The translations under genes and the position numbers were made by a program. From Lachnospiraceae bacterium (GTDB lineage Bacteria; Bacillota; Clostridia; Lachnospirales; Lachnospiraceae), in NCBI GenBank assembly GCA_045640465.1, contig JAZUFC010000096.1, positions 1-37,862 of the forward strand: DNA of 37,862 nucleotides, given 5' to 3'. A model generated the notes under the pieces. It was given only the letters and a program-made list of their open reading frames with translations. It made no database searches and was not told the DNA's origin. Positions 11,082-36,302 of this stretch are shown one piece after another; within the stretch, counting starts at the first letter, position 1, and each line of letters starts with the position of its first letter.

Positions 11082-11082
11082 A

Positions 11083-12498: not shown

Positions 12499-12501
12499 AT
12501 T

Positions 12502-13593: not shown

Positions 13594-13657
13594 GTTTCTG
13601 TCTCTCTTTCCGTTATTGATATGTTGATGATTGATCTTTCAGAAGCAGCCTTCTGTT

Positions 13658-16149: not shown

Positions 16150-17844
16150 TTAAAGAGTCTGCATCTCGCGGTTCTGACAGGACATCAGAAGGACCTGCCG
16201 TCCGACAGACCTGAGAAGCGTTACGGTGTTTCCGAGTTTTTCCGAATCGAAATTCGTCAGCGCATCGTCCAGGATCAGCGGAAGCTTTCTGTCCGGATCC
16301 TCTTCGTTGAACGCTGCCAGACGCACGGAAAGAAATACCTCCTGCGCCGCACTGGCGGAAAGATCCCGTACCGGAAGCTGCCGTCCGCTGTTTGCAAGCG
16401 TCAGGACACCGGTGCCGCTGATGGTCACGGCGTCCTCTTTATCGGCATCCATGCGTGCAAGGAACTCTCCCGCAAGCGCACTCAGCCGGTCTTCCTTTTC
16501 GATTCCGCCGATATTGCATATACTTTCGAAAATGCGGATGGCCTCGTCAAGTGCCAGGATCTCGTTCTGCAGATCCGTCTGCGCCTCCACGCTCTTTTCG
16601 ATCTTTTTCTTTTCCTCTTTTGCTTCCGAGATGCGTTTCTTTTCTTCCGCCTGCTGCGCCCGCTGGATCTCCAGACGGCTCTTCAGGCTTCTGATATGCT
16701 CCGCACGGATGCCTCCGTTCATCAGAGCGGCTGTCTGGGCCTCCTGCTCCTTCTGATAAGCCAGATATTCCGCTTCCTCCCGGCGGATCTCTTCTTCCAG
16801 ATCCGCGATCTCGTCGGAAACGGTCTCTATCGTCTTCTTTTTTCTGTGATGCACGACAAACGTAATGACCGAAATGATCAGAAATACGATCGAGACTCCG
16901 GCTGCAGCCGCGGCGATCATCACCTTCTGCTCCGAAAGACCGGACAGAAACTGCGTGACGGCGATATCATTTGTCTGAATGTAATAAATGTCGCAAGCAA
17001 GAAGCAGAAGCCCCAGGATCAGAAACAGTATGCCGACGGCATTTTTCCGGTTTTTCAGCCTCCCCGCATATTCCATGTCTTCGGCAAGCGTCTTTTTCTT
17101 TTCGTTCAGACTGCCGAGCAGCTTGTCCTCTTGAAGACGCTTCTTCGCATCCGCCTTCTTCAGTTCGCTTCCGTAATTCTGTTCTGCGTTTTCCAGATTG
17201 TCCAGCAGGATCTTTTCGGAATCCGTAAGAGATCTCAAGCTTCTTTCGGCATCGGCGATCCGCTCTTCAAGAAGCTGATGCTTTCCGCGAAGTGCGGGAT
17301 CAATACCGCTTTTCAGCGCCTCGCGCTTGGCAAGGAGCGCTTCTCTTGCATAGTAGCATTTTCTGCGGACGGCACGTTCGCTGGCATAGGCGGCCTCTTT
17401 CTCCTCCGTCTCCTCCCAGCGGGCGAAATCGTTCAGAAAAGTGGTCTGTGACATGAAGCCGAGCGCTTCATACTGTGCGGCGGTGATGCCGGCTGTCGCG
17501 GTCCTGATCCATCTTTCCGGATCTTCGATCTCTCTCTGGTCCGTCAGATTGCATACCTTCAGAAAGGACGCGCCCTTCAGAAAGCTTCTGGTGATCTCAT
17601 AGGTCACGCCGGAATCCAGCACCTCGAGCCTGCCGCCGAAAACGCCCTCGAAATCATACGGATAGTAATGACGGTAGGCATCCGAATCCGGATCGATACC
17701 GAAGAGCATTCCCTCAATGAATGCGGCAATGGTCGTTTTTCCGGACTCATTGTTTCCGGTGATCACATTGATCCCCGGCCGCAGACGGATCTGTCTGTTT
17801 TTCAGTTTTCCGAAGTGACCGATGTCCACTGTAAGTAGAATCAT
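16150..17844 (-). CDS. SbcC/YhaN-like AAA ATPase with coiled coils and a central TM hairpin
   Basis: Walker A GNNESGKTT is N-terminal and Walker B LPLILDDALTNFD is C-terminal. The middle is long and charged-helical. Two hydrophobic helices (AVGILFLILGLLLLACDIYYI and VMIAAAAAGVSIVFLIISVITFVV) are flanked by basic residues. Confidence 0.7.
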   Translation of the reverse strand: MILLTVDIGHFGKLKNRQIRLRPGINVITGNNESGKTTIAAFIEGMLFGIDPDSDAYRHYYPYDFEGVFGGRLEVLDSGVTYEITRSFLKGASFLKVCNLTDQREIEDPERWIRTATAGITAAQYEALGFMSQTTFLNDFARWEETEEKEAAYASERAVRRKCYYAREALLAKREALKSGIDPALRGKHQLLEERIADAERSLRSLTDSEKILLDNLENAEQNYGSELKKADAKKRLQEDKLLGSLNEKKKTLAEDMEYAGRLKNRKNAVGILFLILGLLLLACDIYYIQTNDIAVTQFLSGLSEQKVMIAAAAAGVSIVFLIISVITFVVHHRKKKTIETVSDEIADLEEEIRREEAEYLAYQKEQEAQTAALMNGGIRAEHIRSLKSRLEIQRAQQAEEKKRISEAKEEKKKIEKSVEAQTDLQNEILALDEAIRIFESICNIGGIEKEDRLSALAGEFLARMDADKEDAVTISGTGVLTLANSGRQLPVRDLSASAAQEVFLSVRLAAFNEEDPDRKLPLILDDALTNFDSEKLGNTVTLLRSVGRQVLLMSCQNREMQTL

Positions 17845-17857
17845 ACTGCCTCCTCTA

Positions 17858-18913
17858 TCAGGCGTTTTCAGAGTCTCCGTTCAAAAGTGCATTGATCCCG
17901 TACCACATCGCCTTCTGGCGGACGGAATCGTTTTCGATCTTTTCCGCTTCTTTTGCAAAACGGTCTGCCGCTTCATCGCCGGCCCTTGCCCGGAGCAGGA
18001 ACGAAACGTCCGCTTCATGGGCCGTTTCATCCCTGACAGAAAGGATCCCGCTCAAGCTTTTCAGGGACTCCTCCTGCAGAAGAAGGGACGGTGAAAGTCT
18101 GCCCTGCAGAATGATCTCGTAATAGTTTTCTTTTCCGTATTTTTCCATGATGCCGCGGATCTGCCGGACAGCTTCGTTATAGCTTAAGTCCGCCGTGCAG
18201 TTCACCTTCAGGGAAATATATTCTCTGGATGCCGACGGAACGAACTGGCGGATCAGAGACGGCTGACCGTTATGCGTCCGGACTTCGCAGATGAAAAAGC
18301 CGTGGCGGATCTGTCCGGAAAAGCCCTCCGGCTCGAAATCGCCGGGCGAAAAGGTCTTGTTCCGTTCGTTTCCGATATACAGCTCGTGGCTTCCCGCGCC
18401 GGTATAGTCAAACGGGAGCTCGATCCGGTCCGCTTCTTCGGGAAAATCATCCTGCGATTCCCCTAAGAAAGGCAGAAGAAGGATCTGGACTGAGCCCTTT
18501 TTCCCTCTTGAAAGTTTTTCCGGGTCCACCTTGTCCCACGTATCGGCACTGTAGCCTACGCCGGTGATCTCCGTATCCTGTTTTGCCATATATACGCGCT
18601 GGATACAGTCGCCGTAAAAGACAGTCACCTTGCTTTTCCACTCGTAGCCTGTATGCATCTCTCCGGGAGCCGGAGCATCCAGATCACCGGTCAGGATAAA
18701 GACGCGGCAGCTGTTCAGCTGTGAAAACAGGCTGTCCGCCTCCGAAAGATCGGCCGCAGACGGTTCGGATGCAAACAGGTTTCCGGTAATGAAAAGCGCA
18801 TCCGCCTGACTGGCATTGCAGGCTTCGATCACCTTCTGAAGGTCCCTGCGGTATTCCGCCCGCTTTTCCCCGGTGATATTCAGTTTGATGTTGGCTGCAT
18901 GAACAAATTTCAT
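17858..18913 (-). CDS. YhaO/SbcD-like calcineurin-type phosphoesterase homolog with degenerate catalytic motifs
   Basis: The position upstream of the YhaN-like ATPase and the overall motif layout fit SbcD/YhaO. Motif I reads HAANIKLN where D-x-H-x-D is expected. Motif II reads TGNLF where GD is expected. Motif III reads TGDLD where GNHD/E is expected. Confidence 0.55.
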   Translation of the reverse strand: MKFVHAANIKLNITGEKRAEYRRDLQKVIEACNASQADALFITGNLFASEPSAADLSEADSLFSQLNSCRVFILTGDLDAPAPGEMHTGYEWKSKVTVFYGDCIQRVYMAKQDTEITGVGYSADTWDKVDPEKLSRGKKGSVQILLLPFLGESQDDFPEEADRIELPFDYTGAGSHELYIGNERNKTFSPGDFEPEGFSGQIRHGFFICEVRTHNGQPSLIRQFVPSASREYISLKVNCTADLSYNEAVRQIRGIMEKYGKENYYEIILQGRLSPSLLLQEESLKSLSGILSVRDETAHEADVSFLLRARAGDEAADRFAKEAEKIENDSVRQKAMWYGINALLNGDSENA

Positions 18914-21543: not shown

Positions 21544-22299
21544 TCAGAAGGATCCGCTGGAACCGCTGTGTCCGGTCGAAGATTTTCCGTCACCGGAAGG
21601 CGTACTCTTTTCGATCTGCCTTACTTCACGCGTTGTCCGGTCGAATCTGTCCTCTTTCTTTGTGACATTCAGCTTTCCGCTCTTTAAGTAATGACGCTTC
21701 GGAACAAATGCCCGCGCATTGTGTGAACCTACCGCGATCTTAGAGGCAATACCGCCGCCGCCGAGACCGAACAGAAGCCATGACCAGACGGTCTTTAAAA
21801 AGCCCTTTTTGCCGGCTTTTCTGATCCCGTTTACGAAGATCTCCGCCGCGCTGTCATAATCACCGTCCGCCATGGAGGACGTCAGACTCTTTACGATGCT
21901 GTCTGTCTTATCCTGACTGATCCGGTCTCCGTCTGCCGTACTGTAGGTCTGCACACGGAAGTTCCGGTTTTCCATATCCACATAAAACAGTGCGATATCC
22001 TTGTTTTCTCCGTATCCGAGACCGGAGGAGGCCGCCTCTTTGATGATCCTGTCCGCTGCAGAGACCACATCGTCATCTGCGGGATCCTTTGTGAAGACCA
22101 CCATAAGGTCCATGCCGATCTCTTCACGGACTTCCGAGATCTTCTGATTCAGACTGTCTTTCGCTTCCTGCGAAAGAAAACCGCCGTCATCCGAGATCCA
22201 GTCACCGCCGGCTTCTGCTGCAGCTGAAAAAGCGCAGAACACAGACAGAAGCACGATCATCGTACATAAGATCCATGTCGTTTTTCTCATACCGCTCAC
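21544..22299 (-). CDS. TPM-domain protein with signal peptide and C-terminal TM plus Gly/Ser tail (YdjH-like)
   Basis: The signal peptide ends ..SAAAEAGG. The TPM-like start reads DDGGFLSQEAKDSLNQKISEVREEIGMDLMVVF. A C-terminal TM (WSWLLFGLGGGGIA) is present. Size and layout match B. subtilis YdjH as I recall it. Confidence 0.65.
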   Translation of the reverse strand: MSGMRKTTWILCTMIVLLSVFCAFSAAAEAGGDWISDDGGFLSQEAKDSLNQKISEVREEIGMDLMVVFTKDPADDDVVSAADRIIKEAASSGLGYGENKDIALFYVDMENRNFRVQTYSTADGDRISQDKTDSIVKSLTSSMADGDYDSAAEIFVNGIRKAGKKGFLKTVWSWLLFGLGGGGIASKIAVGSHNARAFVPKRHYLKSGKLNVTKKEDRFDRTTREVRQIEKSTPSGDGKSSTGHSGSSGSF

Positions 22300-23330
22300 C
22301 TCAAAATCAGGAACATCAGAAGGAAGATGACCGCGAACGCGATCAGGAACACTGCGAGTACCTTCACTCGGCTCACCGGAAGCGTTCCGTCGATCTTACC
22401 GGTCTGTCCGTTCATAAAAAGTCTGTATTCCTTACCGAAATACATGAAGCTCAGCATCCACACCGGGAGCAGCGCATAAAGCGCCTCACTGTCTTTCAGC
22501 ACCACATCGGAAGCCTCGACTTCGACTTCGTCGTAGCCTTCGATCTGCTCTCTTGCAGCCTCTACGGCATCTTCTCTGATCTGTGCCTTTACTTTTTCCT
22601 CGTACTGCTCCGCGCCGTGATTCATGCGGTCTGCAGAGAAGCCGGAAAGATAAGGCATTGCAAACTCCTGAAGCTTCTCATAATCGAAGGGCTCCAGAAC
22701 CGCCATGGCGTCATCCGGGACCTTGCCGGAAGCGTTTGCAGGCACATATTCGTAACGGCCCTCATCTTCGCGGTGGACCTTGTAGTGCTCCGTGACGACA
22801 GTCTCCGTGCTGCCGGTCTTTGTCGTTTTGGAGATGGAGGCATCCGCATCCAGAGAGACCTCAGCCGTATAGCTGTATAACCAGAAGGGCACATATACGC
22901 CGGTGACCTTGTCCATGACCGCCTGCGATCTGAATGCGGAAGGGGTCAGACGGCCGCTTCCGGTCCAGTTTCTGAAATAGTTCTGCGCCTGCTTTTTATC
23001 AAACGCAAAGGGGATCACTCTGTCAGGCTTCAGATCGCCTGTCAGACGGCTTTCGATAAAAGCCGGATAAGAACAGTAGGGGCAGTTCGTCACGGCGGTG
23101 AATTCGTCCGCAGTCAGCGTGCCTCCGCAGTTTCTGCACTGATAGATACGCTCTCCGCTTCCGGAATTCTCCACGCTCTCTTCCGGAGCCTTCACCGAAA
23201 GATCCGGAAAGCCTGCATTCGCGTCCGCAATTTCCGCGGTCGTGCCGCAGTTCGGACATTTCAGTTTTCCCGAGCCGGGATCATACAGAAGACGTGATCC
23301 GCAGCCGGGACATTTGATCGTTTGAATCAT
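22296..23330 (-). CDS. double zinc-ribbon protein with C-terminal TM anchor (YdjG-like)
   Basis: Two ribbons are present (CPGCGSRLLYDPGSGKLKCPNCG and CRNCGGTLTADEFTAVTNCPYC). The C-terminal TM is VLAVFLIAFAVIFLLMFLIL. The gene overlaps the TPM gene by 4 nt. Confidence 0.6.
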   Translation of the reverse strand: MIQTIKCPGCGSRLLYDPGSGKLKCPNCGTTAEIADANAGFPDLSVKAPEESVENSGSGERIYQCRNCGGTLTADEFTAVTNCPYCSYPAFIESRLTGDLKPDRVIPFAFDKKQAQNYFRNWTGSGRLTPSAFRSQAVMDKVTGVYVPFWLYSYTAEVSLDADASISKTTKTGSTETVVTEHYKVHREDEGRYEYVPANASGKVPDDAMAVLEPFDYEKLQEFAMPYLSGFSADRMNHGAEQYEEKVKAQIREDAVEAAREQIEGYDEVEVEASDVVLKDSEALYALLPVWMLSFMYFGKEYRLFMNGQTGKIDGTLPVSRVKVLAVFLIAFAVIFLLMFLILR

Positions 23331-23354
23331 TTTCTTCCTCCTGCATTACTTCGC

Positions 23355-24428
23355 TCAGTCAGGCATCACGATCTTCGGCATCTTCTTCGGTTCTTCCGGT
23401 TTTTTTCCGAATAAGCCGCCGGACCGGTTGTCGTGATGCTTGCTTTTCAGCATTTTAACATCATCGGGCATATACTTCGCAACGACCTTCACGGTATAGA
23501 ACACCACTCCCGCCGTCAGAAGGACCGACAGCACGAACAGGATCCACGAAGGAATGCCGAATTCCAGATATGCCGATGTATAGCCGATCAGGTTCGGGAT
23601 CGCCGTGATGATCAGGACACCGAACGCTGCGACCGTATATTTCTTTTCCAGCTTTTCGCCGCGCACGCCGTAGAACAGGACCGCTGCCGCAGTCTGTGCC
23701 AGTGCGCTCAGCACATAAGCCGCATGCTCGCCGAGATAGACAAAGCCGGGCGTCTTTGTCAGGCTGAGAAGCGCATTCGTTGCAGCCTCCAGATCTTCGC
23801 CGTTCTGCACCATCATGGTGAGCGTTCCGTCAAAACCGCTCTGGTTGACTGCGGACATGATCATCAGATACTGGAAACTGTAGGTGATCTGCTGTCCTAA
23901 AAAGATCGCAGCCGCATAAGCCGAAACACCGTAAGCAAGAGCCGCGCCGATATTGGTCTTCAGATGACGCCTGTCCAGCATGCGGAAGGCATATCTGACG
24001 CCGAAGAAGGCAGCCACACCCTCCAGTATGAAAGAAAAGACCGTCCCCGTCATTGACAGAATAAATGTATACCGGTCCGCACGGGCCGGATCCTCCGACA
24101 TGGCTTTCATGCCCGGGATCAGACTGATGCCGCTCATGACCATCGTATAGGCCAGATAACAGAACAGCACGTTGAAAAGAAGACCGGCAATCACACCGGG
24201 CCCCCAGTTGAACGTACGGTTTTTGACCTGAATAAATGCAATGATGCCGATCACGATCAGAAGCAGTGCACCGCCTGCAAGCGCGATCATGGAAAAGGCA
24301 GGTACCTTCATATCGCTGTACTGGGTCACTACGGTCTCCACTGTCTCCGTAACTGTCTGCTGAATGACAGTCACGCCGGGAGCTGTCTCCTCAGATGCCT
24401 GCAATACAAGCTGTGTCAAACCAAACAT
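23355..24428 (-). CDS. polytopic membrane protein, unknown function (possibly YhfC-like)
   Basis: The product is 357 aa with roughly 7-8 hydrophobic helices and a basic C-terminal tail. No secure family motif is visible. Confidence 0.5.
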   Translation of the reverse strand: MFGLTQLVLQASEETAPGVTVIQQTVTETVETVVTQYSDMKVPAFSMIALAGGALLLIVIGIIAFIQVKNRTFNWGPGVIAGLLFNVLFCYLAYTMVMSGISLIPGMKAMSEDPARADRYTFILSMTGTVFSFILEGVAAFFGVRYAFRMLDRRHLKTNIGAALAYGVSAYAAAIFLGQQITYSFQYLMIMSAVNQSGFDGTLTMMVQNGEDLEAATNALLSLTKTPGFVYLGEHAAYVLSALAQTAAAVLFYGVRGEKLEKKYTVAAFGVLIITAIPNLIGYTSAYLEFGIPSWILFVLSVLLTAGVVFYTVKVVAKYMPDDVKMLKSKHHDNRSGGLFGKKPEEPKKMPKIVMPD

Positions 24429-24587
24429 AGGCTGCTTTCCTCCGCTTCATAAGTGTCAGGATACATCAATATCCAGTGTTAATCATACATGATTCGGCCT
24501 GTTTTTGCAAGAAAAGTACCCGAAACATTTCCCAAAAGAATTCGTCATTTTTTGTGCAGAATATCCAAAATTTGAAGGCATTCTTCC

Positions 24588-24616
24588 TTGACCCCTGTAT
24601 CTATTTCTGTTAAAAT
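24588..24616 (+). promoter_or_regulatory. csp promoter TTGACC-17-TAAAAT
   Basis: The -35 element is at 24588-24593 and the -10 at 24611-24616. This leaves a 5' UTR of about 95 nt, which is typical for cold-shock genes. Confidence 0.55.
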
Positions 24617-24717
24617 AATAACGAACTGCATCATTATAATGATTTCGATAACATGATTCATTTCAATTCGATCTCGTTGGAACCGGCGGTTCAAATCAGT
24701 TTGGAGGTAAGATCAAT

Positions 24718-24918
24718 ATGAACAAAGGAACAGTTAAATGGTTCAACAACCAGAAGGGCTACGGCTTCATTTCCGATGAGAACGGAAACGATGTATTCGT
24801 ACATTACTCCGGACTCAACATGGAAGGCTTCAAGTCTCTGGACGAAGGCCAGGCTGTTGAATTCGATATTATCGAAGGCGCAAAAGGCCCTCAGGCAGTA
24901 AATGTAACAAAGCTGTAA
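24718..24918 (+). CDS. csp: cold-shock protein (CspA family)
   Basis: The product is 66 aa. RNP1 (KGYGFI) and RNP2 (VFVHY) are present, and a GGAGG RBS precedes the start. Confidence 0.95.
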
Positions 24919-24935
24919 AAAGAACTGTTTCAGTC

Positions 24936-24980
24936 GAGAACGGCCTCCGGTTTTCTTCCGGAGGCCGTTCTCTTTCTTTT
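24936..24980 (+). terminator. intrinsic terminator after csp
   Basis: A 15-bp perfect stem pairs gagaacggcctccgg (24936-24950) with ccggaggccgttctc (24958-24972). A T-rich tract follows. Confidence 0.8.
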
Positions 24981-25858
24981 TATTTCTGTGCCAGGATCGT
25001 CTGAAGGTCCTCCGGCGAAAAATGATACTTTTTGCTGCAGAACTGGCAGACCATCTCCACTTCTCTGCCCTCATCGATCAGCGACTGTATCTCCTCCTTC
25101 GGAAGAGACATCAGCATATCCTTTGTCTTCTCTTCGGAACAGCTGCAGGTGAACGCCACCGGGATCCTGTCCAGAAACTCCGGGTCCATCCCCTCAAAGA
25201 AGTCCTTCATCATATCTTCCACGGTCTTTCCGCTCTCCAGATATTCGGTCACGGAAGAAAAGCCGGAAAGCTTCTTTTCCAGCGCATCGATCACCCCGTC
25301 CGAAGCGCCGGGCATCATCTGAATGATGAAGCCGCCCGCATTCTTCACCTGCGCGGTCTCTTTGTCAAGAAGCACGCCGAGCGCCACGGAGGAAGGCGTC
25401 TGTTCGGATGTCGCGAAGTAATAGGTAAGATCCTCCGCGATCTCTCCGGTCTCCAGGATCGTCTGTCCCACGTAAGGATCCTTCAGGCCCACGTCCCGGA
25501 TCACGGACAGCACGCCCAGACCGAGCGCCTCGCCCACGTTCAGATGGCCTCTGTCGTTTGCGGGAAGGATCACCACCGGATTTTTGACATAGCCCTTCAC
25601 ATGTCCGAAGGCATCCGCAGTTACGGTAAGGCCCTGGATCGGCCCGTCACAGTCGATCTTAATGGTCAGAAGGTCCTTTTCCCCCTTCATCATGAAGCCC
25701 ATCATGGCACCTGCAGTCAAAAGGCGGCCGAGCGCTGCCGCGCAGATCGGGCTCAGTTCATGTGCGGCTCTTCCGAATTCCGCCGTTTCCTTTGTACTCG
25801 CCGCAAAGAAACGGACCTGTCCCTGTGCCGCCGTTCCGCGGATCATATAATCACTCAT
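24980..25858 (-). CDS. hslO: Hsp33 redox-regulated chaperone
   Basis: The product is 292 aa. The C-terminal zinc switch reads CSCS...CQFC. Confidence 0.9.
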   Translation of the reverse strand: MSDYMIRGTAAQGQVRFFAASTKETAEFGRAAHELSPICAAALGRLLTAGAMMGFMMKGEKDLLTIKIDCDGPIQGLTVTADAFGHVKGYVKNPVVILPANDRGHLNVGEALGLGVLSVIRDVGLKDPYVGQTILETGEIAEDLTYYFATSEQTPSSVALGVLLDKETAQVKNAGGFIIQMMPGASDGVIDALEKKLSGFSSVTEYLESGKTVEDMMKDFFEGMDPEFLDRIPVAFTCSCSEEKTKDMLMSLPKEEIQSLIDEGREVEMVCQFCSKKYHFSPEDLQTILAQK

Positions 25859-28544: not shown

Positions 28545-29177
28545 ATGCTGAATTTTGATGAACTCGCTGCTGCAATGGGAGATCTGGATGAAGACACTGT
28601 GAAAGAGATCCTGAATGGTGTAATGGATGAAGGCGGCAGTGAAGCCGACCTTGCCCTGGAAGCTTGCCAGAAGGGCATGGATCAGGTCGGAAAGCTGTTT
28701 GAAGACGGAGAATATTTTGTCGGCGATCTGATCTACGCAGGTGAACTGATGACCGATGCCGTGAATATTCTGAAGGATGCACTGGTCTCGGGCGGAAGCA
28801 GCGACGCAAAGGAAAAAATGCTCCTCTGCACCGTAAAAAACGATCTGCATGATATCGGCAAGAACATCGTGAAAGCCATGCTGGAGGCAAGCGGCTTCAA
28901 CGTGATCGATCTCGGGATCGACGTTCCCGCAGAAAAGATCGTGGAGACCGTCAAGGCGGAAAATATCCGCATCGTTGCCCTTTCCGGCGTACTGACACTT
29001 GCGATCGACTCCATGAAGGAGACCATTCAGGCCATCCGCGATGCCGGCCTCGACTGCAAGGTCATCATCGGCGGCGCCCCCGTTTCCGAAGACGCCTGCC
29101 GTATTACCGGTGCTGATGAATGGGCTCACAGCCCGCAGAAGACCGTTGAGACCTGCAGAGCGTGGGTCAAAGCGTAA
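28545..29177 (+). CDS. cobalamin-binding (corrinoid) protein, MtaC/MtbC-like
   Basis: A helical B12-binding_2 cap is followed by a Rossmann domain. The domain carries DxHxxG (DLHDIG), SxL (SGVLT) and GG (IIGGAP). Confidence 0.8.
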   Translation: MLNFDELAAAMGDLDEDTVKEILNGVMDEGGSEADLALEACQKGMDQVGKLFEDGEYFVGDLIYAGELMTDAVNILKDALVSGGSSDAKEKMLLCTVKNDLHDIGKNIVKAMLEASGFNVIDLGIDVPAEKIVETVKAENIRIVALSGVLTLAIDSMKETIQAIRDAGLDCKVIIGGAPVSEDACRITGADEWAHSPQKTVETCRAWVKA

Positions 29178-29189
29178 AACCATAGTAAG

Positions 29190-29249
29190 AAAAAAGCCGA
29201 AGGACTACAGATACTCCGATATTTGCAGTTCTTCAGCTTTTTTCTTTTT
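29190..29249. terminator. bidirectional terminator shared by the corrinoid gene (+) and the islet operon (-)
   Basis: An 18-position imperfect stem pairs 29196-29213 with 29220-29237, with 2 mismatches and 2 G-U pairs. An A6 run precedes it and T6/T5 runs follow. Confidence 0.65.
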
Positions 29250-29250
29250 G

Positions 29251-29439
29251 TTATCTCTTTTTTCCAATAGGAGGATGAAGATCCCAATCCGGAAAACAAC
29301 TTGCAAAGCCTTCCAAATTCTGCGTCAGAACGATTTTTTCAGCTTTTTCGAGTTCTGTTTCAGGTTTACCGAATAATTCACCCAATTCGTTAAAATCATC
29401 TTCCATGCTTACAATGTTTTGATTATTGTTGTCAGACAT
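29251..29439 (-). CDS. 62-aa acidic protein, unknown function (islet gene 5)
   Basis: I placed the start at the ATG at 29439, with AAGGAG 6 nt upstream; the ORF track began at the GTG at 29442. The sequence reads MSDNNNQNIVSMEDDFNELGELF...FPDWDLHPPIGKKR. Confidence 0.55.
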   Translation of the reverse strand: MSDNNNQNIVSMEDDFNELGELFGKPETELEKAEKIVLTQNLEGFASCFPDWDLHPPIGKKR

Positions 29440-29451
29440 CACTTTCTCCTT

Positions 29452-31161
29452 TTACGCCACTATATGCTCGCCTTCACTATTATACTGATCCATAATTATG
29501 CATATATCATTCCATTGACTTAATGATGATTCAAGTTTTGCCTTTCCTACGGCAATTCTATTATCAAAATCGTTATTTACTCTTGCAATACGTTTTTCAA
29601 TGGTTTTGAGCTCACTGAAGCGCATGCTGAATAATATTATACTAACAACGGTCATACCGATTGAAGCAGGAATCAAAATCGGCACAGTAATACCGCACAC
29701 AACTGCAAGCACGAACATAACTACTGAAACAAGCAGAAATGTTCTGGGTTTTTTTTCGATAGTACTGATTTCCTCTTCCCTTAATAAATTCATTGTTCTT
29801 TCATAATCTGCAGCAAGTTCGGAGAATTCTGTTCCATCATTTGATAATCCGGTCCAATCATCTAACTTCAAAGTAATTTTATCAGGGAACGAATTCTTTG
29901 CTTTATCTATATATTTTGAGTAACCGCGATTAATATAACTACTCAAGAAGGTGACTGCAGTCCTCCGTTTTGACGGGGCGGCATCCGTCTCATCAATAAT
30001 TTCACTAGACATTTTTTCTATAAAATCAAGTTTCTTCTGCTGACGTTTAATTTCTCTGCTCAAAATCTCTCTCTTAGCTTTTTCTTCATCACCCTCATAA
30101 TATTTTACAAGAGAAAGATACTCTTCTTCCCGTCTGATATCAGTCTCGGCTTTATCATAATTGCTAATTAACTGGACCAATTCGCTATCGATTGCTTTCT
30201 TCATCGTTTCCTGATCTACAAAAGCATCTTTGATGCCCTTAAAGTTTTTACGAATCACTCCATAAGAATTTACCGACCCAACAGCTGAATTGATTCTTGA
30301 AAACTCATCTGCCGTTTGAGCAAGATCCGGATACATCGACTTAACATCGATTTGAAAACGCTGACAGTAGTTTGCCCATTTTTCCTCCTGTGCTGTCTCA
30401 AAATCACCCCGATTACCGCGTATCTCATCAATCCATTTTGCAATATATCCTTGACACATATTTCTATCATCAGGACCAAAAACACCGTTTACATAAGCAT
30501 CAATATACGTAAAGGTTTCTTCTGTGATGCTTTGTGCGCTTTGTTTGGAGAAATAAATAGAAAGCCATTCAAAACCGGTTTCGATTCTTCCATTACGCCG
30601 ACAGATCAATGCCATCGCAAGTGCAGTTTTTTCTTCATCTCGCTTCATGGCCTCAGCAATCGCCCGCTCAGCGAGATTGCGGTCGTTTGAAATCCAGGCT
30701 GAAACCGCAACCAGACACGGAGAAAGCCAATACTCCGGTGTTGAAAGCATCAATTCCTCAGACACCTGTGAAATCGTATTTTTCTTAACTAAAGCCGCAT
30801 CAGTTGCCTGAATCACACCAAGCATTGTCTCACGAATGAGAGAATAGTTACCATACTTCTGTCCAATTTCCTGACGGACACGAATTAACTCACTTATGGC
30901 TTTCTGCAAAGCCGTAGCACTTTTCTGCTCCTTAACCATTTGCTGAAAGTCCTGAGTGAGCTTTAACAAATCTTGTTGAACACTATCTATTTTTCGCTCG
31001 ATTTGCGATGCCTTTCTATCGATGTCAGCTACTGTTTCGCTGACGGTTTCAACAGATTTTTTCAATTTGTTGATTTCACTAAAGTCCTTACTGAGAGAAT
31101 CTACTGACTGTTTCAGCTTACTGACCTTATCGCTGACTGTAGCAAAAGTTTCTTCTGACAT
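29452..31161 (-). CDS. 569-aa coiled-coil protein with C-proximal TM hairpin, unknown function (islet gene 4)
   Basis: An AGGAAGGA RBS precedes the start. Heptad-like charged helices run from about residue 1 to 125. The middle is helical. A hydrophobic hairpin (FLLVSVVMFVLAVVCGITVPILIPASIGMTVVSIILF) is followed by a tail of about 60 aa. Confidence 0.7.
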   Translation of the reverse strand: MSEETFATVSDKVSKLKQSVDSLSKDFSEINKLKKSVETVSETVADIDRKASQIERKIDSVQQDLLKLTQDFQQMVKEQKSATALQKAISELIRVRQEIGQKYGNYSLIRETMLGVIQATDAALVKKNTISQVSEELMLSTPEYWLSPCLVAVSAWISNDRNLAERAIAEAMKRDEEKTALAMALICRRNGRIETGFEWLSIYFSKQSAQSITEETFTYIDAYVNGVFGPDDRNMCQGYIAKWIDEIRGNRGDFETAQEEKWANYCQRFQIDVKSMYPDLAQTADEFSRINSAVGSVNSYGVIRKNFKGIKDAFVDQETMKKAIDSELVQLISNYDKAETDIRREEEYLSLVKYYEGDEEKAKREILSREIKRQQKKLDFIEKMSSEIIDETDAAPSKRRTAVTFLSSYINRGYSKYIDKAKNSFPDKITLKLDDWTGLSNDGTEFSELAADYERTMNLLREEEISTIEKKPRTFLLVSVVMFVLAVVCGITVPILIPASIGMTVVSIILFSMRFSELKTIEKRIARVNNDFDNRIAVGKAKLESSLSQWNDICIIMDQYNSEGEHIVA

Positions 31162-31202
31162 AGAGATTGTCCTTCCTAATCTATTGTAGATTACCAGAAT
31201 CT

Positions 31203-32009
31203 TTATTGTATACCTGCATCTTCTTCATATTTGCGTTTTCTTTGTTGATAAGCTCGTTGAAACATCTCTTTGTATTGGCAATCAGCCATAGAATCAATAA
31301 TCTTACCAACAGACAAAACAAAATTATCGTAGAAATAACGTGTTTTCGATTTCAGAAGAAATGTGTTGCTTGCATATGGTGAATCCGGATTGGTTTGGAT
31401 TGCAGAAAGCAATGCATAACAAAGTTTCGGGACGCCACAATGTTCTGCCAGCTCACTATAGATAGCAACCATCTCCTTTGACAAAAACCCCATTGAAGGT
31501 CTCTTACCAATCAGATATGGGCATAATTTATCCAAAAAATCGCAAATCATCTGTGCATCTCTTTCATCCTGCAAATTCTTGGCTACAACAGTAATCACAT
31601 TCTTTTCATACTCAATCAGGCTGTACGGCGAAGCCAGAAAAAGCTGCATCAATTCTTTAATTTCATCATATTCGAGCGCACTGCTTTCCGCAAAACGAAA
31701 AAAAGACTGTATGCTTCCATTTTTACCAAGTATATGTTCATCATAGTATGCCATGATATATAAAGCTGGAGCATTATCTATGAATATATTAATTACATCG
31801 TGTGCGTATTGACTTGCTGTATCGTATTTCCCGCCGACAAAGAAAGTAATCGCATTCTGTCTGCTATATGCAACCTGGCCATTAACATTCAATGTAGCTC
31901 TCGAGTAATACTCTTCTTTTCCGCACTGATTGCACAACAATACACGACGTTGTGGATCAAATGTTACATTTGTGCTTCCGCAACCGGAGCACTGCATTCC
32001 GCTTATCAA
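31203..32009 (-). CDS. zinc-ribbon plus helical-domain protein, unknown function (islet gene 3)
   Basis: The likely start is the TTG at 32009, with AGAGGAGAG about 5 nt upstream. An N-terminal ribbon (CSGCGSTNVTFDPQRRVLLCNQCG) is followed by a domain of about 220 aa with no motif I recognise. Confidence 0.6.
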   Translation of the reverse strand: MISGMQCSGCGSTNVTFDPQRRVLLCNQCGKEEYYSRATLNVNGQVAYSRQNAITFFVGGKYDTASQYAHDVINIFIDNAPALYIMAYYDEHILGKNGSIQSFFRFAESSALEYDEIKELMQLFLASPYSLIEYEKNVITVVAKNLQDERDAQMICDFLDKLCPYLIGKRPSMGFLSKEMVAIYSELAEHCGVPKLCYALLSAIQTNPDSPYASNTFLLKSKTRYFYDNFVLSVGKIIDSMADCQYKEMFQRAYQQRKRKYEEDAGIQ

Positions 32010-32035
32010 AACTACTCTCCTCTATTTCAGGCTTT

Positions 32036-32728
32036 TCAAGCCCTGGTCCTCCACATCAGCAATGCCTTATCTATCATGCCGATGATACATTCACTATTTT
32101 CATTATTATCAATAGCTTCTTGAATTCTGGAAAGTTGACTGAAAAAACACTTTTCCTTTTCAAAATTTTGAAATGATATGGTATTTGTACCATAATCAAT
32201 ATTTTCTTTTAATTTAAGAATTGATTCTTTTACAACGTCATCTTTAACACTTGCCAACATATTTTTCAAAGCGGTTGACATCCGTACGGTCTTTTCAGTT
32301 TTGTCCCGCATAATCTCATTCTTTTTCTTAAGACTTCCCAAATAGAAAAGAATATATACAGAATAAATCAAAGCCCCCGCAGTCAATATAATATTAACTG
32401 TCAAACAGATTTTTTCCGGTATCTGTGATTGGCCATTTGAATTGCCTGAAACCAGAATAAACACAGTATTCAAAATGATAGAAATACAGATATAACCAAT
32501 AGAGAAATAGGCAGGAATCACAGGCGCAGAAGTTTCATTAGGGATCTCATCTGTTTTTTGAACAAGATTCAGTATAAACACCAGTAAAAAACTGAAAGTT
32601 CCAAATGCCAGCCCACATTTTCCAACACTGCCGGCTGCAGCAATGTTGCAAAGCAAAGCAATAAGAATCAACCATGTGATTCCCAATACCGTTACCGCAA
32701 AAAGGAAAAGTTTCCTATTCATTTTCAT
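32036..32728 (-). CDS. 4-TM membrane protein with about 95-aa cytoplasmic helical tail (islet gene 2)
   Basis: I moved the start to the ATG at 32728 (MKMNRKLF...), which has GGAAGGA 8 nt upstream. This removes the 61-nt overlap with the SPFH gene. Four hydrophobic helices are followed by KKKNEIMRDKTEK... Confidence 0.65.
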   Translation of the reverse strand: MKMNRKLFLFAVTVLGITWLILIALLCNIAAAGSVGKCGLAFGTFSFLLVFILNLVQKTDEIPNETSAPVIPAYFSIGYICISIILNTVFILVSGNSNGQSQIPEKICLTVNIILTAGALIYSVYILFYLGSLKKKNEIMRDKTEKTVRMSTALKNMLASVKDDVVKESILKLKENIDYGTNTISFQNFEKEKCFFSQLSRIQEAIDNNENSECIIGMIDKALLMWRTRA

Positions 32729-32748
32729 GGCACATATCCTTCCATCAA

Positions 32749-34119
32749 TTATAGTTTCTCTCCACACTCCATGCAGAATTTGCTGTTTTGTGATAATTTG
32801 GCTCCGCATTTCGGACAGATCTGATAATCAATCATCTTTCTACCACAATTATAACAATATCTGGCTCCTTTTACCAAATGTGTTCCACAATCAGGACATA
32901 TAAGTTCATACTCTATTTTTTCTCCGCAGTTGTAACAGAAATGTGCTTCCTTAGGCAATTTTGTATTACACGCCGGACACACAGTTTCATTTTCAGAGGC
33001 AACAGTTTTCTCGGATCCAGTCTTTTGAAAAATATCGAATGTATCCTGTGCTACAGAATTTATTCCACTTCCGAATGCATTTCCAATCCCTACACCCATA
33101 CCTAATCCCATACCTGCACCTAAAAAAGATCCCGAAGAACCCTCATTTTCAGCTGCAGCATGCATGACTCCATAAGCCTTTTCTTGCTGATAAGTAAACC
33201 CTTCGCGCTCGCGCATCCGTGCCCTGGCTGCAGACTCAATATCCATCCTGACAGCATTTCCTTCTGCCTCAAGTTGATTGCGCTTTTTTTGGATTTTCAT
33301 CTCATTGATAGAAATCAAGTCCTCTTCAGGTACATTAATGTTATGAAAAGAAAAATTGTCCAAAGACAAGCCAAACTCATCAAAATATGGCATCAATTTT
33401 TCTTGAATATCTGCTGACAGTTCGGATAAATATGCACTGATTCTCATTACACCAATTTTATTGGCAACAATGCATTCTGCAAGAAGATCGGGAACATATT
33501 CGAGAATTTTCGCCCTCATAAACCCAACCAGTTCGTTTCTTGTATAATCCGAACGCGTTCCGACTATTTTCCGAAGGAACTTCGTTGCCTGAATCGAAGC
33601 AATGCTTGTATCCAACTGCTCAATATGAACACCGAACAGGCCAAACGCACGAACATGTACATTAACCTCTTCTTCAGGGTCTGACACAACAATCGGTGCA
33701 TGAGTCCCCCAGTTCAGTTCATTCATATACGTTGCATTTATAAAATATACTGTACTGTGATATGCTGACTCTCCATTGGTCAATGTATGTGAAAGGTTAC
33801 GGAACGGAGCAAAACGACTGTCACCCGTCTCCAGTTTTGCTTTACACGGTCCAATAAAAACAGCTACTTGCGAAGTAACTCCGCCCTCTTCATTCAGGGA
33901 ATTGCCGGACGCAATATTATTAACAAACACAGCAATTTGAGAAGGATGAACAATCAACTGGGAACCAGATGGAAAATCCTCAGCCTCAAACTTATGAACG
34001 ATTATAGAAGCCTCTTCATCAGTTTTAGGTTCCCATTTAATAAGATCAACAGCAAAAGCATTGAGAAGACTATGTTTTTCCATTTTGGGTTGATCGGAAT
34101 TGTTTGAAAACAATGACAT
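32749..34119 (-). CDS. SPFH/Band-7 (YdjI / COG4260-type) protein with Gly-rich linker and three C-terminal zinc ribbons (islet gene 1)
   Basis: The N-terminal DLIKWEP..IIVHKF....PSGSQLIVHPSQIAVFV matches the YdjI-family start. The linker reads GSFLGAGMGLGMGVGIGNAFGSG. Three CxxC-x10-CxxC units lie at DNA 32752-32979. A GGAGGG RBS precedes the start. Confidence 0.8.
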   Translation of the reverse strand: MSLFSNNSDQPKMEKHSLLNAFAVDLIKWEPKTDEEASIIVHKFEAEDFPSGSQLIVHPSQIAVFVNNIASGNSLNEEGGVTSQVAVFIGPCKAKLETGDSRFAPFRNLSHTLTNGESAYHSTVYFINATYMNELNWGTHAPIVVSDPEEEVNVHVRAFGLFGVHIEQLDTSIASIQATKFLRKIVGTRSDYTRNELVGFMRAKILEYVPDLLAECIVANKIGVMRISAYLSELSADIQEKLMPYFDEFGLSLDNFSFHNINVPEEDLISINEMKIQKKRNQLEAEGNAVRMDIESAARARMREREGFTYQQEKAYGVMHAAAENEGSSGSFLGAGMGLGMGVGIGNAFGSGINSVAQDTFDIFQKTGSEKTVASENETVCPACNTKLPKEAHFCYNCGEKIEYELICPDCGTHLVKGARYCYNCGRKMIDYQICPKCGAKLSQNSKFCMECGEKL

Positions 34120-34157
34120 CTCTATCCCTCCATTCCTTCAGTATCATATACTATCTG

Positions 34158-34186
34158 ATTATATTAATCTTAAGTCTATCATGCAA
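34158..34186 (-). promoter_or_regulatory. islet promoter TTGCAT-17-TATAAT
   Basis: On the minus strand the -35 element is at 34186-34181 and the -10 at 34163-34158, with an exact 17-nt spacer. It lies about 40 nt upstream of the SPFH start. Confidence 0.6.
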
Positions 34187-34238
34187 AAAAAGATTTATCA
34201 ACACATCTTCTGTGTGAACTGAACAGCTTGAATGCTCA

Positions 34239-36302
34239 TTAGCTCTCCCGCCTCAGTCTGAAACCGGGATCTTTCCCCTCTCTTGCAAAAACAGGAATTG
34301 AAGAAAGCGGCGCGTCAGCGGTGATCCACTGTCCGCCGCTGTATTTTTTGCCGTCGCGCATATCAGTCCATTCCGCTCCTGCGGGCAGATACAGTCTGCG
34401 TGTCCGCTCTCCCGCGGTATAAACAGGCGCCACTAAGACCGCATCGCCGAACAGATACTCATCCTCAATATTCCAGCATTCGGAATCCTTCGGGAATTCA
34501 TAAAACAGGGTACGCATGACAGGGCGTCCGTAAAGGTGCGCCTCCTCCATGAGTCTTGTGATATAAGGCTTCATCCGTTCGCGGAGCTGAATGCAGTCCG
34601 TGAGGATCGGATAGGCTTCTTCTCCGTAGGACCAGACTTCATTGTCCGCACCGGTAGAGCACATGCCGCCGCCGCTTTCCGGCCAGCCGTATTTCTGACC
34701 GGGGTTATCCGTCGCAGGCTCGCGGTCACCGTGAAGCCGCATGACAGGACAGAAGGTCCCGTATTCAAACCAGCGGAGCAGGATCTCGCGGAAAGCAGGA
34801 TCATCGGGATCGCCGCCGTGGAAGCCGCCGATATCCGTCGTCCACCACGGGATTCCGGCTAGGCCCATGTTCAGGCCTGCCGCCATCTGATTCCGGAGCG
34901 CTTTGAAGCTCGAATGGATATCGCCCGACCATACGAGCGCGCCGTAGCGCTGGCTTCCCGCCCAGGCACAGCGGAGCAGATTGATCGGATTTTCGATCCC
35001 CTCTTCTTTCATGCCTTCATAAAAACCCTGTGCATAGAAACGCGGATACAGATTGCCGATCTGCACATTCGGTCCCATCGCATAACGGTACAGGTCAAAG
35101 TCATATTTACCGTATTCAGGCTCAGCCTCATCCAGCCAGAAAAGGCTTACGCCCTTCTTCAGATAGTTCTCCTTTGCCTTTTCCCAGACAAAGCGGCGCG
35201 CTTCCGGATTCGTCGCATCAAAATGCACGGTCATTTCCATGAAATCCATCGCATAGCGAAGGCCTCTGTCTGTCCGGATCAGATATCCTTTTTCCAGCAT
35301 TTCCGGGTAGTTTACGCTCTGTTTCGTTACCGTCGGCCACACGGAGACCATCAGACGGATCCCCATCTCATTCAGCTTCCTGACCATTCCCTCCGGATCC
35401 GGCCAGTAGTTCCGGTCAAAATCCCAGTCGCCCTGATGCGGCCAGTGGAAGAAGTCGATCACGATCACGGATACCGGGATCCCGCGGCGATGATATTCCT
35501 CCGCAACGGACAGAAGCTGCTCCTGATTCCAGTATCTGAGTTTGCATTGCCAGAAGCCCATCGCCCAGTCCGGCATCATCGGCACGGTTCCGGAAACAGC
35601 CGCGTACTGTGTTTCGATCTCGTCCGGCGTATCTCCTGCCGTGATCCAGTAATCCATCTGCTTCGTGGACATCAGCTGCCAGCGGGTCACATTCTTTCCG
35701 AATACGACCGAGCCGATGCCCGGATTGTTCCAAAGGAACCCATAACCCTTTGAAGAGACTACGAACGGCACGCTCGCCTGGGAATTCCGGTGCGCAAGCT
35801 CCAGCTCACACCCCTTCAGATCCAGCTGCGGCATCTGATACTGCCCCATACCGTAAAGCTTTTCCTCCGGGTCCGACTCAAAACGGACCGTCAGGCGGTA
35901 ATCGCCGCCGGGGATCGGATAGAACTCGCGCGCATCGATGTCCAGTGCACTGCAGTAGTCCGCCTTGAGATCCAGCCGGTTCCGCAGAAATTCCTCCAGA
36001 AGGACTTCACCTTTTTCATTTTCAAAGAAAAGCTTTCCGGCTGCCGTGATCCTGGCAAGGATCCTGCCGTTTCTGATCGTAGCTTCTTTTTCGCCGATCA
36101 CGATCTCCGCATTTTTCTCTTCTTTAGGAAGAAGGGCCCAGTTTTCGGAAAGCTCCAGCCTGTCATTCATCGTGCAGCGCACGCGCAGACTGTCCTTTCC
36201 CCAGGGCTCGATCAGAAGCTTTTCCGCATCAAAACGTCTGCAGAGCTTTCCGTCCTCCGCACTGAAGACTTTCGAATATCCGACTGCTGTAATAATTCCC
36301 AT
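34239..36302 (-). CDS. glycoside hydrolase family 31 (alpha-xylosidase/alpha-glucosidase-like)
   Basis: GH31-type blocks are present (VIVIDFFHW, MVSVWP, FWLDEAEPE, WSGDI). I moved the start from 36398 to the ATG at 36302 (MGIITAVGY...), which has AGAGGAGAA upstream. Confidence 0.8.
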   Translation of the reverse strand: MGIITAVGYSKVFSAEDGKLCRRFDAEKLLIEPWGKDSLRVRCTMNDRLELSENWALLPKEEKNAEIVIGEKEATIRNGRILARITAAGKLFFENEKGEVLLEEFLRNRLDLKADYCSALDIDAREFYPIPGGDYRLTVRFESDPEEKLYGMGQYQMPQLDLKGCELELAHRNSQASVPFVVSSKGYGFLWNNPGIGSVVFGKNVTRWQLMSTKQMDYWITAGDTPDEIETQYAAVSGTVPMMPDWAMGFWQCKLRYWNQEQLLSVAEEYHRRGIPVSVIVIDFFHWPHQGDWDFDRNYWPDPEGMVRKLNEMGIRLMVSVWPTVTKQSVNYPEMLEKGYLIRTDRGLRYAMDFMEMTVHFDATNPEARRFVWEKAKENYLKKGVSLFWLDEAEPEYGKYDFDLYRYAMGPNVQIGNLYPRFYAQGFYEGMKEEGIENPINLLRCAWAGSQRYGALVWSGDIHSSFKALRNQMAAGLNMGLAGIPWWTTDIGGFHGGDPDDPAFREILLRWFEYGTFCPVMRLHGDREPATDNPGQKYGWPESGGGMCSTGADNEVWSYGEEAYPILTDCIQLRERMKPYITRLMEEAHLYGRPVMRTLFYEFPKDSECWNIEDEYLFGDAVLVAPVYTAGERTRRLYLPAGAEWTDMRDGKKYSGGQWITADAPLSSIPVFAREGKDPGFRLRRES

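Follow-up and report, generated by a model that had tools for sequence, protein, structure and literature searches.

The DNA analyzed here is a 37,862-nt contig of a Lachnospiraceae bacterium (JAZUFC010000096.1, assembly GCA_045640465.1), referred to below in its full length as the window, and the element of interest is an islet of low guanine-plus-cytosine (GC) content within it. Five genes of the islet, g1 to g5, encode an SPFH protein with three Zn ribbons, a protein with four predicted transmembrane (TM) segments, a Zn-ribbon/helical protein, a coiled-coil/TM protein and a mini-protein (Table 1). These domain calls had been made by eye in a first-pass annotation of the sequence, and Pfam searches, hydropathy and AlphaFold2 (AF2) models bore them out. 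Two stop codons bound the islet, at 29177 that of a corrinoid-protein gene (convergent) and at 34239 that of a GH31 gene (co-directional). Our analyses demonstrated that it is a horizontally acquired operon and that its five genes recur as a self-contained conserved unit in many other bacteria.

Table 1. Features of the low-GC islet; positions are counted from the first letter of the window (aa, amino acids; pLDDT, predicted local distance difference test)
Feature	Positions	Strand	Length	Description
Low-GC islet, whole	29178–34238	minus		From the corrinoid-protein gene stop to the GH31 gene stop; GC 0.382 versus 0.525 in the host
Terminator hairpin	29187–29246	both		Predicted bidirectional intrinsic terminator; −30 kcal/mol, z = −7.1; 27-nt imperfect inverted repeat
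g5	29251–29439	minus	62 aa	Acidic mini-protein; start placed at the ATG one codon after a GTG
g4	29452–31161	minus	569 aa	Predicted coiled-coil/helical/TM-hairpin protein; AF2 pLDDT 78
g3	31203–32009	minus	268 aa	Zn-ribbon/helical protein; TTG start; N-terminal CxxC-x17-CxxC ribbon; no predicted TM segment
g2	32036–32728	minus	230 aa	Predicted 4-TM membrane protein (hydropathy, four hydrophobic segments); predicted cytoplasmic C-terminal domain
g1	32749–34119	minus	456 aa	SPFH protein (Band_7_1), predicted cytosolic; Gly-rich stretch, three C-terminal Zn ribbons
Promoter-like site	34158–34186	minus		TTGCAT-17-TATAAT; consensus match only, 38 nt upstream of the g1 start

A compositionally foreign and conserved five-gene operon

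Outside the islet, the window has a GC content of 52.5% and the housekeeping gene content of a Bacillota-type chromosome, with genes for DnaD/DnaI-like replication proteins, indolepyruvate oxidoreductase, several tRNA synthetases, endonuclease III, Hsp33 and MecA. Measured in 1-kb windows, mean GC was 0.384 inside the islet versus 0.526 ± 0.021 outside it (z = −6.8), and the lowest 1-kb window outside still reached at least 0.460. The GC content at third codon positions (GC3) was 0.31–0.35 in the five islet genes, compared with 0.635–0.660 in the flanking corrinoid, GH31 and 2-hydroxyacid-dehydrogenase genes. The strand-symmetrized tetranucleotide profile of the islet correlated with that of the rest of the window at r = 0.30, whereas 5-kb chunks of host DNA alone gave r = 0.93–0.97. 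In 60-nt bins, GC dropped from 0.58 to 0.33 over 29081–29260 at the left border and rose from 0.22 to 0.52 over 34141–34320 at the right border, so that the switch was complete within one or two bins, i.e., about 60 nt, at each edge. The first-pass annotation had pointed to an abrupt change in base composition at both intergenic edges, to A/T-shifted third codon positions and, from these, to horizontal acquisition, and the computed values uphold all three: with its foreign GC, GC3 and tetranucleotide profile and its sharp borders, the islet is a compositionally foreign, horizontally acquired operon.

No trace of the vehicle of this transfer was detected. There is no tRNA gene within the window, no direct or inverted repeat of at least 9 nt joins the two islet borders, no ends of an insertion sequence or transposon were found, and no integrase or transposase open reading frame (ORF) lies inside the islet, where the five ORFs fill the block and leave no room for a recombinase gene. 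The absence of an integrase, transposase, tRNA target and terminal repeats, already noted at first reading, was thus verified by the border-repeat, tRNA and ORF checks. With no recombinase, border repeats, tRNA or viral-contig relative, the islet was rejected as a recognizable mobile element, whether insertion sequence, transposon, integrative and conjugative element or prophage. Exact-sequence look-ups of g4, the corrinoid protein and the GH31 protein matched no record. A search of metagenome contigs with GH31 returned 80 loci at no more than 70% identity, with neither the corrinoid gene nor the cassette nearby and no shared synteny.

The five genes are co-directional and separated by only 20, 26, 41 and 12 nt, and a GGAGG-like Shine-Dalgarno site precedes each of the five starts, in agreement with the earlier description (gaps of 12–41 nt). 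The hairpin terminator, formerly placed at 29190–29249, was confirmed at the positions in Table 1; none of 200 shuffled sequences folded as well, and since an A-run flanks it on one side and a U-run on the other, it would terminate both convergent units, the islet and the corrinoid-protein gene. The claim that the islet has its own promoter and is expressed autonomously stood only in part. The TTGCAT-17-TATAAT site is present where it had been reported and is plausible as a promoter by its match to the consensus, but such hexamer pairs were not above chance in this AT-rich stretch (18 found versus 15.1 expected from shuffles), and for this reason we did not count the site toward autonomous expression. 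Read-through transcription from the co-directional GH31 gene may also supply the islet. No cis-regulatory RNA was matched in Rfam at E ≤ 0.1.

The same five genes were found in many other genomes, in a composition that we call type A. A species-level scan of 185,579 genomes, one per species, yielded 143 loci (<0.1%), 80 of which were kept for analysis, and the type-A set as a whole comprised 86 loci in 42 lineages, with g4 DNA clustered at 88% identity. By tblastn with the five proteins of the window, the order g1-g2-g3-g4-g5 on a single strand was present in essentially every locus that was long enough. The kept loci belong to Lachnospiraceae, including cultured Butyrivibrio sp. X503 and Oribacterium sp. 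P6A1, to Oscillospiraceae (Lawsonibacter, Flavonifractor, Faecousia and Faecalibacterium), to Christensenella, Herbinix, Catonella and Johnsonella, to many Collinsella (Actinomycetota) and to one Spirochaetales metagenome-assembled genome (MAG). Amino acid identity to the proteins of the window was 49–72% for g1, 23–39% for g2, 42–75% for g3, 38–62% for g4 and 44–75% for g5. Order and sizes thus recur in about 42 lineages amid unrelated neighbors; g1-g5 are a self-contained conserved unit, as the first-pass annotation had proposed.

The closest cassette, on an 18.8-kb ENA metagenome contig (L001), shares only 72, 39, 75, 62 and 75% identity with g1 to g5, respectively, and the donor itself is therefore not among the searched collections. 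L001 and two further contexts found by exact protein look-up (L002 and L003) carry the five genes in the same order and sizes among wholly different neighbors. In these three, cassette GC lies within about 0.06 of that of either flank (closest in L003), compared with a gap of 0.14 in the window, and the cassette accordingly looks native there. The composition supports a transfer from a lower-GC Bacillota lineage into the present host. In Collinsella, 35 species-level genomes carry the cassette and the g1-to-g5 spacing was equal within a few bases in 27 of the 27 contigs that reach g1; judged by this cassette-internal spacing, inheritance in Collinsella is apparently stable, i.e., vertical. Reduced forms also occur: two lineages (L011/L012 and L045) are without g2, their g1 and g3 being only about 45–58 nt apart, and one lineage (L016) consists of g3-g4-g5 alone.

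The five proteins and the type-B cassettes

Among the five proteins of the cassette, only g1 has a known family. Its Band_7_1 domain (PF13421) spans residues 48–266 and scored 99 bits against a Pfam cut-off of 24 (E = 3.7e-28), while Band_7 proper (PF01145) reached only E = 0.078. DZR and Zn_Ribbon_1 matched at about 1e-19, and six CxxC motifs make up three CxxC...CxxC pairs at residues 381–452. The protein has no hydrophobic TM segment or N-terminal anchor and contains a Gly-rich low-complexity stretch at about residues 328–352. With a domain above the gathering score in an anchor-less protein that combines a low-complexity stretch with Zn fingers, g1 is clearly assigned by sequence to Band_7_1 and to the YdjI/SamI class.

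For g2, the ATG at 32728 was favored over the longest-ORF start at 32809 by the lengths and N-termini of its homologues, and the C-terminal domain carries the family motif LKExVDYSxN. In Collinsella and a few other lineages, the divergence of g2 exceeds what tblastn can detect. When the 37 lineages with both g1 and g3 were inspected, the gap between these two genes held an ORF of 225–245 aa with four N-terminal hydrophobic segments and the shared C-terminal motif in 34 of them; in L046 the gap has only a 158-aa ORF with one hydrophobic segment. The AF2 model of g3 (pLDDT 92) consists of a three-stranded Zn ribbon followed by an all-alpha domain with tetratricopeptide (TPR)-like repeats, for which Foldseek returned generic TPR proteins only (best E = 0.013, TM-score ≤ 0.39). 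Its ribbon matched Zn_Ribbon_TF (TFIIB-type) with 20 bits, under the cut-off of 29 bits. At least 267 homologues of g3 were found, of 261–288 aa, all unnamed or "hypothetical".

The model of g4 begins with a helix some 115 residues long that shows almost no sequence conservation. It is followed by a very conserved helical-repeat domain (residues ~85–430), where most of the 121 columns that are invariant in the family alignment are located, and on the C-terminal side by a small beta hairpin, a TM helical hairpin (~470–520) within two long helices, and a C-terminal helix. We found at least 505 full-length homologues of highly uniform length, unnamed or "hypothetical". A family profile run against 1.84 billion representatives recovered at least 828 clusters (50% identity level); nearly all are of 540–620 aa, and 383 matched at E ≤ 1e-30. 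Judged by these profile matches, g4 represents a large family without a model. Taking hydropathy together with the AF2 models of g3 and g4, g2 and g4 are predicted to be integral membrane proteins, and g1 and g3 to be soluble.

Attempts to relate g4 to known proteins gave little. Foldseek found no fold match at E ≤ 1e-3 in PDB or the viral fold library, the top 50 PDB entries being helical-repeat (generic TPR) or coiled-coil proteins only, and the g4 profile against PDB sequences gave coiled-coil noise only. An identity as a PspA/ESCRT-III protein was rejected, since neither a signature of PspA_IM30 or Snf7 nor a match to an ESCRT-III-like fold was found, and hhalign likewise dismissed g3 and g4 as paralogues of each other (probability 1.9%). 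The names attached to some homologues of g4 at their source ("DUF308", "type VII secretion", "chemotaxis protein", "prenyltransferase") were discarded as artefacts of TM and coiled-coil similarity; a weak ESAT-6-like NCBIfam match (E = 0.004) falls far below the cut-off. More generally, g2 to g5 had no match above threshold in Pfam, NCBIfam, PADLOC, PDB or the viral fold library, with no match of any kind for g2 in the first three. Against the 5027 models of PADLOC-DB 2.0.0, the five proteins gave only coiled-coil-type matches to g4 residues 4–113 (best E = 1.4e-4), and nothing for g2 and g5. No enzyme domain was detected in g1 to g5 by Pfam or NCBIfam, which agrees with the earlier remark that none of the five products has a recognizable enzyme motif. 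A phage or viral origin was also rejected, because g4 has no relative among 2.9 million viral contigs and no fold match in BFVD.

The start of g5 at the ATG at 29439 agrees with the lengths and N-termini of its homologues, and this small protein is the best-conserved element of the cassette. Its tail, LTQNLEGFASCFP[DE]WDLHPP followed by basic residues, is near-invariant from Lachnospiraceae to Collinsella and the Spirochaete MAG in an alignment of 41 lineages, and the core motif FP[DE]WDLxP is kept in cassettes of other phyla, which we call type B. A translated search with g4 detected relatives in 1 of 50,697 phage records and 4 of 72,556 plasmid records, at 25–32% identity and 76–95% coverage: two Komagataeibacter nataicola plasmids, a Comamonas antarctica megaplasmid, a Fusobacterium vincentii replicon and the Streptococcus satellite phage Javan368. 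The Fusobacterium record (L169, NZ_CP084075.1), listed in PLSDB as a plasmid, is 2.1 Mb long and without annotation; it is almost certainly a chromosome, and its g4 relative is not to be counted as plasmid-borne. Type-B cassettes also occur in Achromobacter, Paraburkholderia and Quatrionicoccus chromosomes, so that Betaproteobacteria are included among the hosts.

Type-B cassettes encode, in order, proteins of ~158 aa, ~572 aa (g4-like), ~62 aa (the mini-protein), ~188 aa and ~517 aa, the last being a classical AAA ATPase. The g4-like protein aligned to the g4 family with an hhalign probability of 100% (E = 1e-85, 516 columns), and the mini-protein, which ends in AFPEWDLLPATPFVRRVK or a close variant, aligned to the g5 tail with a probability of 95.7%. 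The other proteins were rejected as diverged forms of g1 to g3 (probabilities ≤ 2.1%). The closest solved relatives of the ATPase are VAT, p97 and Cdc48 (5e-61); in PADLOC it matched IetA by the AAA domain only. A g4-type protein of 540–620 aa directly followed by an FP.WDL.P mini-protein was found in the window, in the 42 type-A lineages and in the type-B loci L167–L175. On sequence comparison, g4 and g5 evidently form a conserved two-protein core, joined to an SPFH set in type A and to an unfoldase set in type B, a relation not noted in the first-pass annotation.

Some type-B cassettes reside on mobile DNA. Those of Komagataeibacter lie on plasmids of 26 and 38 kb beside an IS3 transposase and an integrase, and that of Javan368 (L175, MK448457.1) spans 9674–14257, the last ~4.6 kb of the 14.3-kb satellite, with an unannotated g5-like ORF (...FAEGLPSWDIVPPQLLVRRKRQK) at ~11405–11581 between the annotated g4-like gene and the next gene. 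Since the AAA+ proteins of Javan368 and Fusobacterium vincentii are 74% identical, exchange between Streptococcus and Fusobacterium was probably recent. Two Achromobacter loci (L170 and L171) share an identical g4-like protein (P0411) and the same downstream genes with different upstream genes, namely SSB and UvrA in one and a Schlafen/AlbA_2-HATPase protein with a TacA antitoxin in the other (L171), which suggests a variable region directly upstream of this cassette.

Possible functions and genomic context

The neighbors of the cassette were surveyed by taking up to three ORFs per side in the 42 type-A lineages (101 upstream and 111 downstream). No Pfam family occurred in more than 3 of the 101 upstream or 6 of the 111 downstream ORFs, the top downstream family being the ubiquitous ABC ATPase, and the flanks were mostly housekeeping genes such as those for tRNA synthetases, acetate kinase and ABC transporters. 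PspA, an integrase and a sixth partner or regulator were not among the 25 most frequent flanking Pfam families, in which families with one or two ORFs are partly included. PADLOC matches in the flanks were limited to two restriction systems, a type IV enzyme and a type I restriction-modification set, besides a few helicase/ATPase proteins. By this test, which is crude and carries no background rate, the cassette appears self-contained and shows no evident tie to defence islands.

Three observations elsewhere are recorded for completeness. A second, small low-GC dip at 24400–24999 of the window (0.38–0.42 in 400-nt windows) is intergenic between the genes of Hsp33 and of a 357-aa membrane protein and is probably an AT-rich promoter region. 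At 16150–18913, on the minus strand, a 564-aa ATPase of AAA_23/AAA_27 type (6.7e-15) follows a 351-aa protein without a Pfam match, and the two could be a defence-type pair resembling an SMC/OLD-like ATPase module. On the 20.5-kb Butyrivibrio fibrisolvens plasmid pNP21 (L176, NZ_CP146965.1; 6700–10053), the gene of a different SPFH/Zn-ribbon-type protein, 28% identical to g1 over 94% of its length, precedes two genes for hypothetical proteins (145 and 464 aa). Around the three lie genes for a restriction S subunit and a recombinase and a YoeB/RelB toxin-antitoxin pair, and the group is possibly a further SPFH module carried by mobile DNA.

We tentatively interpret the islet, with a probability of roughly 40%, as an acquired operon for a membrane-anchored SPFH scaffold or surveillance complex at the cytoplasmic face of the membrane, i.e., an accessory envelope-stress module. 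In such a complex, g4 would be anchored in the membrane, expose its large coiled-coil and helical-repeat part to the cytoplasm and oligomerize via the long helix on the inner side of the membrane. Short terminal peptides are typical ligands of helical-repeat domains, and because g5 co-occurs with g4 and not with g3, the invariant C-terminal FP[DE]WDLxP peptide of g5 might dock onto g4. SPFH cages and AAA+ machines act jointly in HflK/C-FtsH. The SPFH oligomer of g1 could corral or stabilize the g4 assembly at perturbed sites of the membrane, to which g1 would be brought by the Zn-ribbon/TPR-like adaptor g3 and the 4-TM protein g2, by analogy with SamG/SamH, which recruit SamI to the membrane in B. 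subtilis (bioRxiv 10.64898/2026.02.06.704340). In addition, g3 would bridge g1 to the membrane proteins, as YdjG does for YdjI. Since Band-7 proteins and AAA+ ATPases recur as partners of membrane-remodelling PspA systems (Ravi et al. 2024, PMC11237479), and in view of HflK/C-FtsH, control of the assembly state of a membrane complex would be the simplest common denominator of types A and B.

The view that the islet is native DNA of odd composition or a chance cluster of decaying genes might appeal to the failure to find an empty site for comparison and to the lack of mobility genes and end repeats; it is close to refuted, however, by a GC3 half that of both flanks, by a tetranucleotide profile unlike the rest of the window, by five intact ORFs whose full-length homologues share 39–76% identity, and by a gene order kept across phyla in which even the 62-aa ORF is conserved. 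The main alternative, somewhat less probable than the surveillance reading, is that the cassette is a membrane-acting anti-phage or anti-plasmid system working by abortive infection or exclusion. The g4 and/or g2 proteins would then be membrane-damaging or injection-blocking effectors, restrained by the SPFH scaffold and an antitoxin-like g5 until released by infection, and in type B a Cdc48-like unfoldase would release them. Such a role suits a recently transferred, self-contained accessory operon of modular design, with a fixed core and swappable partner sets, in which g2 and the N-terminal helix of g4 evolve fast. Its type-B form sits on Komagataeibacter plasmids beside mobility genes, fills the accessory end of Javan368 and has apparently been exchanged recently between Streptococcus and Fusobacterium, and some cassettes have defence-type neighbors (a WYL gene in L001, Schlafen/AlbA_2 and TacA in L171, and the type IV and type I restriction genes among the 42 type-A lineages). 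On the other hand, none of the 5027 PADLOC models matched a component beyond coiled-coil or generic AAA similarity, and the cassette was consequently rejected as a known defence system. Type A contains none of the usual effectors, such as a nuclease, a protease or an NADase; housekeeping genes predominate in the flanks, with clear defence genes in few of the 42 lineages; the relatives of g4 are as scarce in phage, plasmid and viral collections as given above; g4 and g5 are under strong purifying rather than diversifying selection; and inheritance in Collinsella appears stable. The surveillance and defence readings, which echo the envelope-repair and phage-defence options of the first-pass annotation, are also compatible, as a membrane-integrity sensor could serve either.

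Considerably less probable is another membrane-linked function of a housekeeping type, for instance as an accessory of secretion or surface assembly, as a scaffold in cell division or shape, or as a platform for chaperoning a membrane client whose gene lies elsewhere. The parts list comprises an SPFH domain, Zn ribbons, a coiled coil and TPR-like repeats, all of scaffold-like character, with no enzyme, and the "type VII secretion" name of one g4 homologue and the weak ESAT-6-like match would point the same way. These automatic names, however, rest on coiled-coil similarity, the cassette is not associated with a secretion ATPase, signal peptides or substrates, the neighbors never recur, and fewer than 0.1% of species genomes carry it. 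The surveillance complex favored here has difficulties of its own. A rare, patchy and cross-phylum distribution fits a conflict system at least as well, and relatives of the g4-g5 core reside on small plasmids and one phage satellite. In L001, a 316-aa WYL-domain gene (6132–7082), preceded by a helix-turn-helix gene and a gene for a 1084-aa protein without a Pfam match, extends 14 nt into the beginning of the SPFH gene, and a WYL-regulator gene overlapping an operon start is a common arrangement in defence systems; there is no such regulator in the window. Moreover, g2, g3 and g4 are not homologues of YdjH, YdjG and PspA, and Pfam found no PspA_IM30 in g1 to g5 at E ≤ 0.1, so that the sole characterized output of the YdjI class is missing. 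Finally, the contacts among the five proteins are all ones that we infer, as are the physiological trigger and the output.

Whichever role applies, the cassette is of interest in several respects. The g2 to g5 families are without a model or structural match although the g4 family alone is so large, and the operon is conserved in at least three phyla of gut and rumen bacteria. It provides a second, PspA-free setting for the anchor-less SPFH proteins of the YdjI/SamI class. The g4-g5 core, served by an SPFH scaffold in one case and a Cdc48-like AAA+ protein in the other, is a natural experiment whose common ground could reveal how SPFH proteins act on their clients. It is conceivable, if rather doubtful, that this core represents an unrecognized and widely transferred class of membrane system, driven by either an SPFH cage or a Cdc48-like unfoldase and serving, e.g., membrane-acting immunity or membrane-protein quality control by a mechanism without characterized relatives. 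No published description of the type-A operon, the g2 to g5 families or the type-B cassette was found in the literature and libraries searched. Should the role turn out to be phage defence, the system would lack an enzymatic effector of the conventional kind. For binding and mutagenesis experiments, g5 offers a handle in its invariant 20-residue tail.

Comparison with known systems

The nearest characterized relative of g1 is YdjI (SamI), which belongs to the same Pfam family and has the same build. YdjI is a soluble SPFH protein with no TM segment, a low-complexity stretch and C-terminal Zn fingers, which needs YdjG and YdjH to reach the membrane and positions PspA (PMC8581546). The first-pass annotation had drawn a loose parallel, component by component, between the cassette and the B. 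subtilis pspA-ydjGHI operon. The parallel survives for the architecture of g1 and, weakly, for the Zn ribbon of g3, and fails for the other partners: g4 is not PspA, g2 is without the TPM domain of YdjH, and PspA is absent from the set and from the most frequent flanking families. At the level of the operon, the cassette also shares with pspA-ydjGHI an SPFH gene next to genes for integral membrane proteins and for a protein that starts with a TFIIB-type Zn ribbon, such a ribbon having been described in YdjG by Popp et al. (PMC9239133), and by analogy the recruitment of a soluble SPFH scaffold by membrane proteins is likely the common logic. The differences are that g3 has neither the second Zn ribbon nor the NTF2-like domain and TM segment of YdjG, that g4 and g5 are without counterpart, and that the gene order differs. 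An identity of g2 as a YdjH/TPM protein was rejected, with no TPM_phosphatase match in g1 to g5, and the cassette as a whole was rejected as a pspA-ydjGHI/samGHI operon after PspA, a TPM partner and a YdjG-type partner had all been sought in it and none found.

A far better match to ydjGH than any islet gene is native to the host. Five kilobases from the islet, at normal GC, a minus-strand set at 21544–24428 encodes a 357-aa polytopic membrane protein without a Pfam match, a 344-aa YdjG-like protein with several N-terminal CxxC Zn-ribbon motifs (Zn_Ribbon_TF 1.8e-6) and a C-terminal TM segment, and a 251-aa YdjH-like TPM-domain protein (21544–22299, TPM 1.3e-16), the YdjG-like/TPM pair occupying 21544–23330. 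No Band_7_1 or PspA gene lies beside this pair, nor did the other large ORFs scanned in the window include a PspA; the acquired g1 is the only Band_7_1 gene in the window.

Type-B cassettes resemble the islet in their g4 family, in the adjacent mini-protein of ~62 aa with its FP.WDL.P tail and basic residues, and in being self-contained sets of five genes among variable neighbors; they differ in that the ~158-aa, ~188-aa and AAA ATPase proteins replace the SPFH, 4-TM and Zn-ribbon/TPR proteins of type A. In HflK/C-FtsH, stomatin-NfeD and YqiK/YuaG-YqiJ/YuaF, an SPFH protein is encoded with a membrane partner and its oligomer encloses or organizes a client; SPFH and AAA+ proteins can serve a single membrane module either jointly or as alternatives. 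The type-A SPFH gene similarly adjoins membrane-protein genes, but g1 is an anchor-less Band_7_1 protein, and there is no NfeD-, FtsH- or YqiJ-like partner and no protease. The likeness to PspA/ESCRT-III systems (PMC11237479) is one of context only, namely a membrane helical protein with a Band-7 or AAA+ partner depending on the lineage, and g4 differs from them as a predicted integral membrane protein of ~570 aa with a TPR-like domain and no PspA_IM30 or Snf7 signature. Among known systems, the cassette is kin to the SPFH-scaffold operons with dedicated membrane partners.

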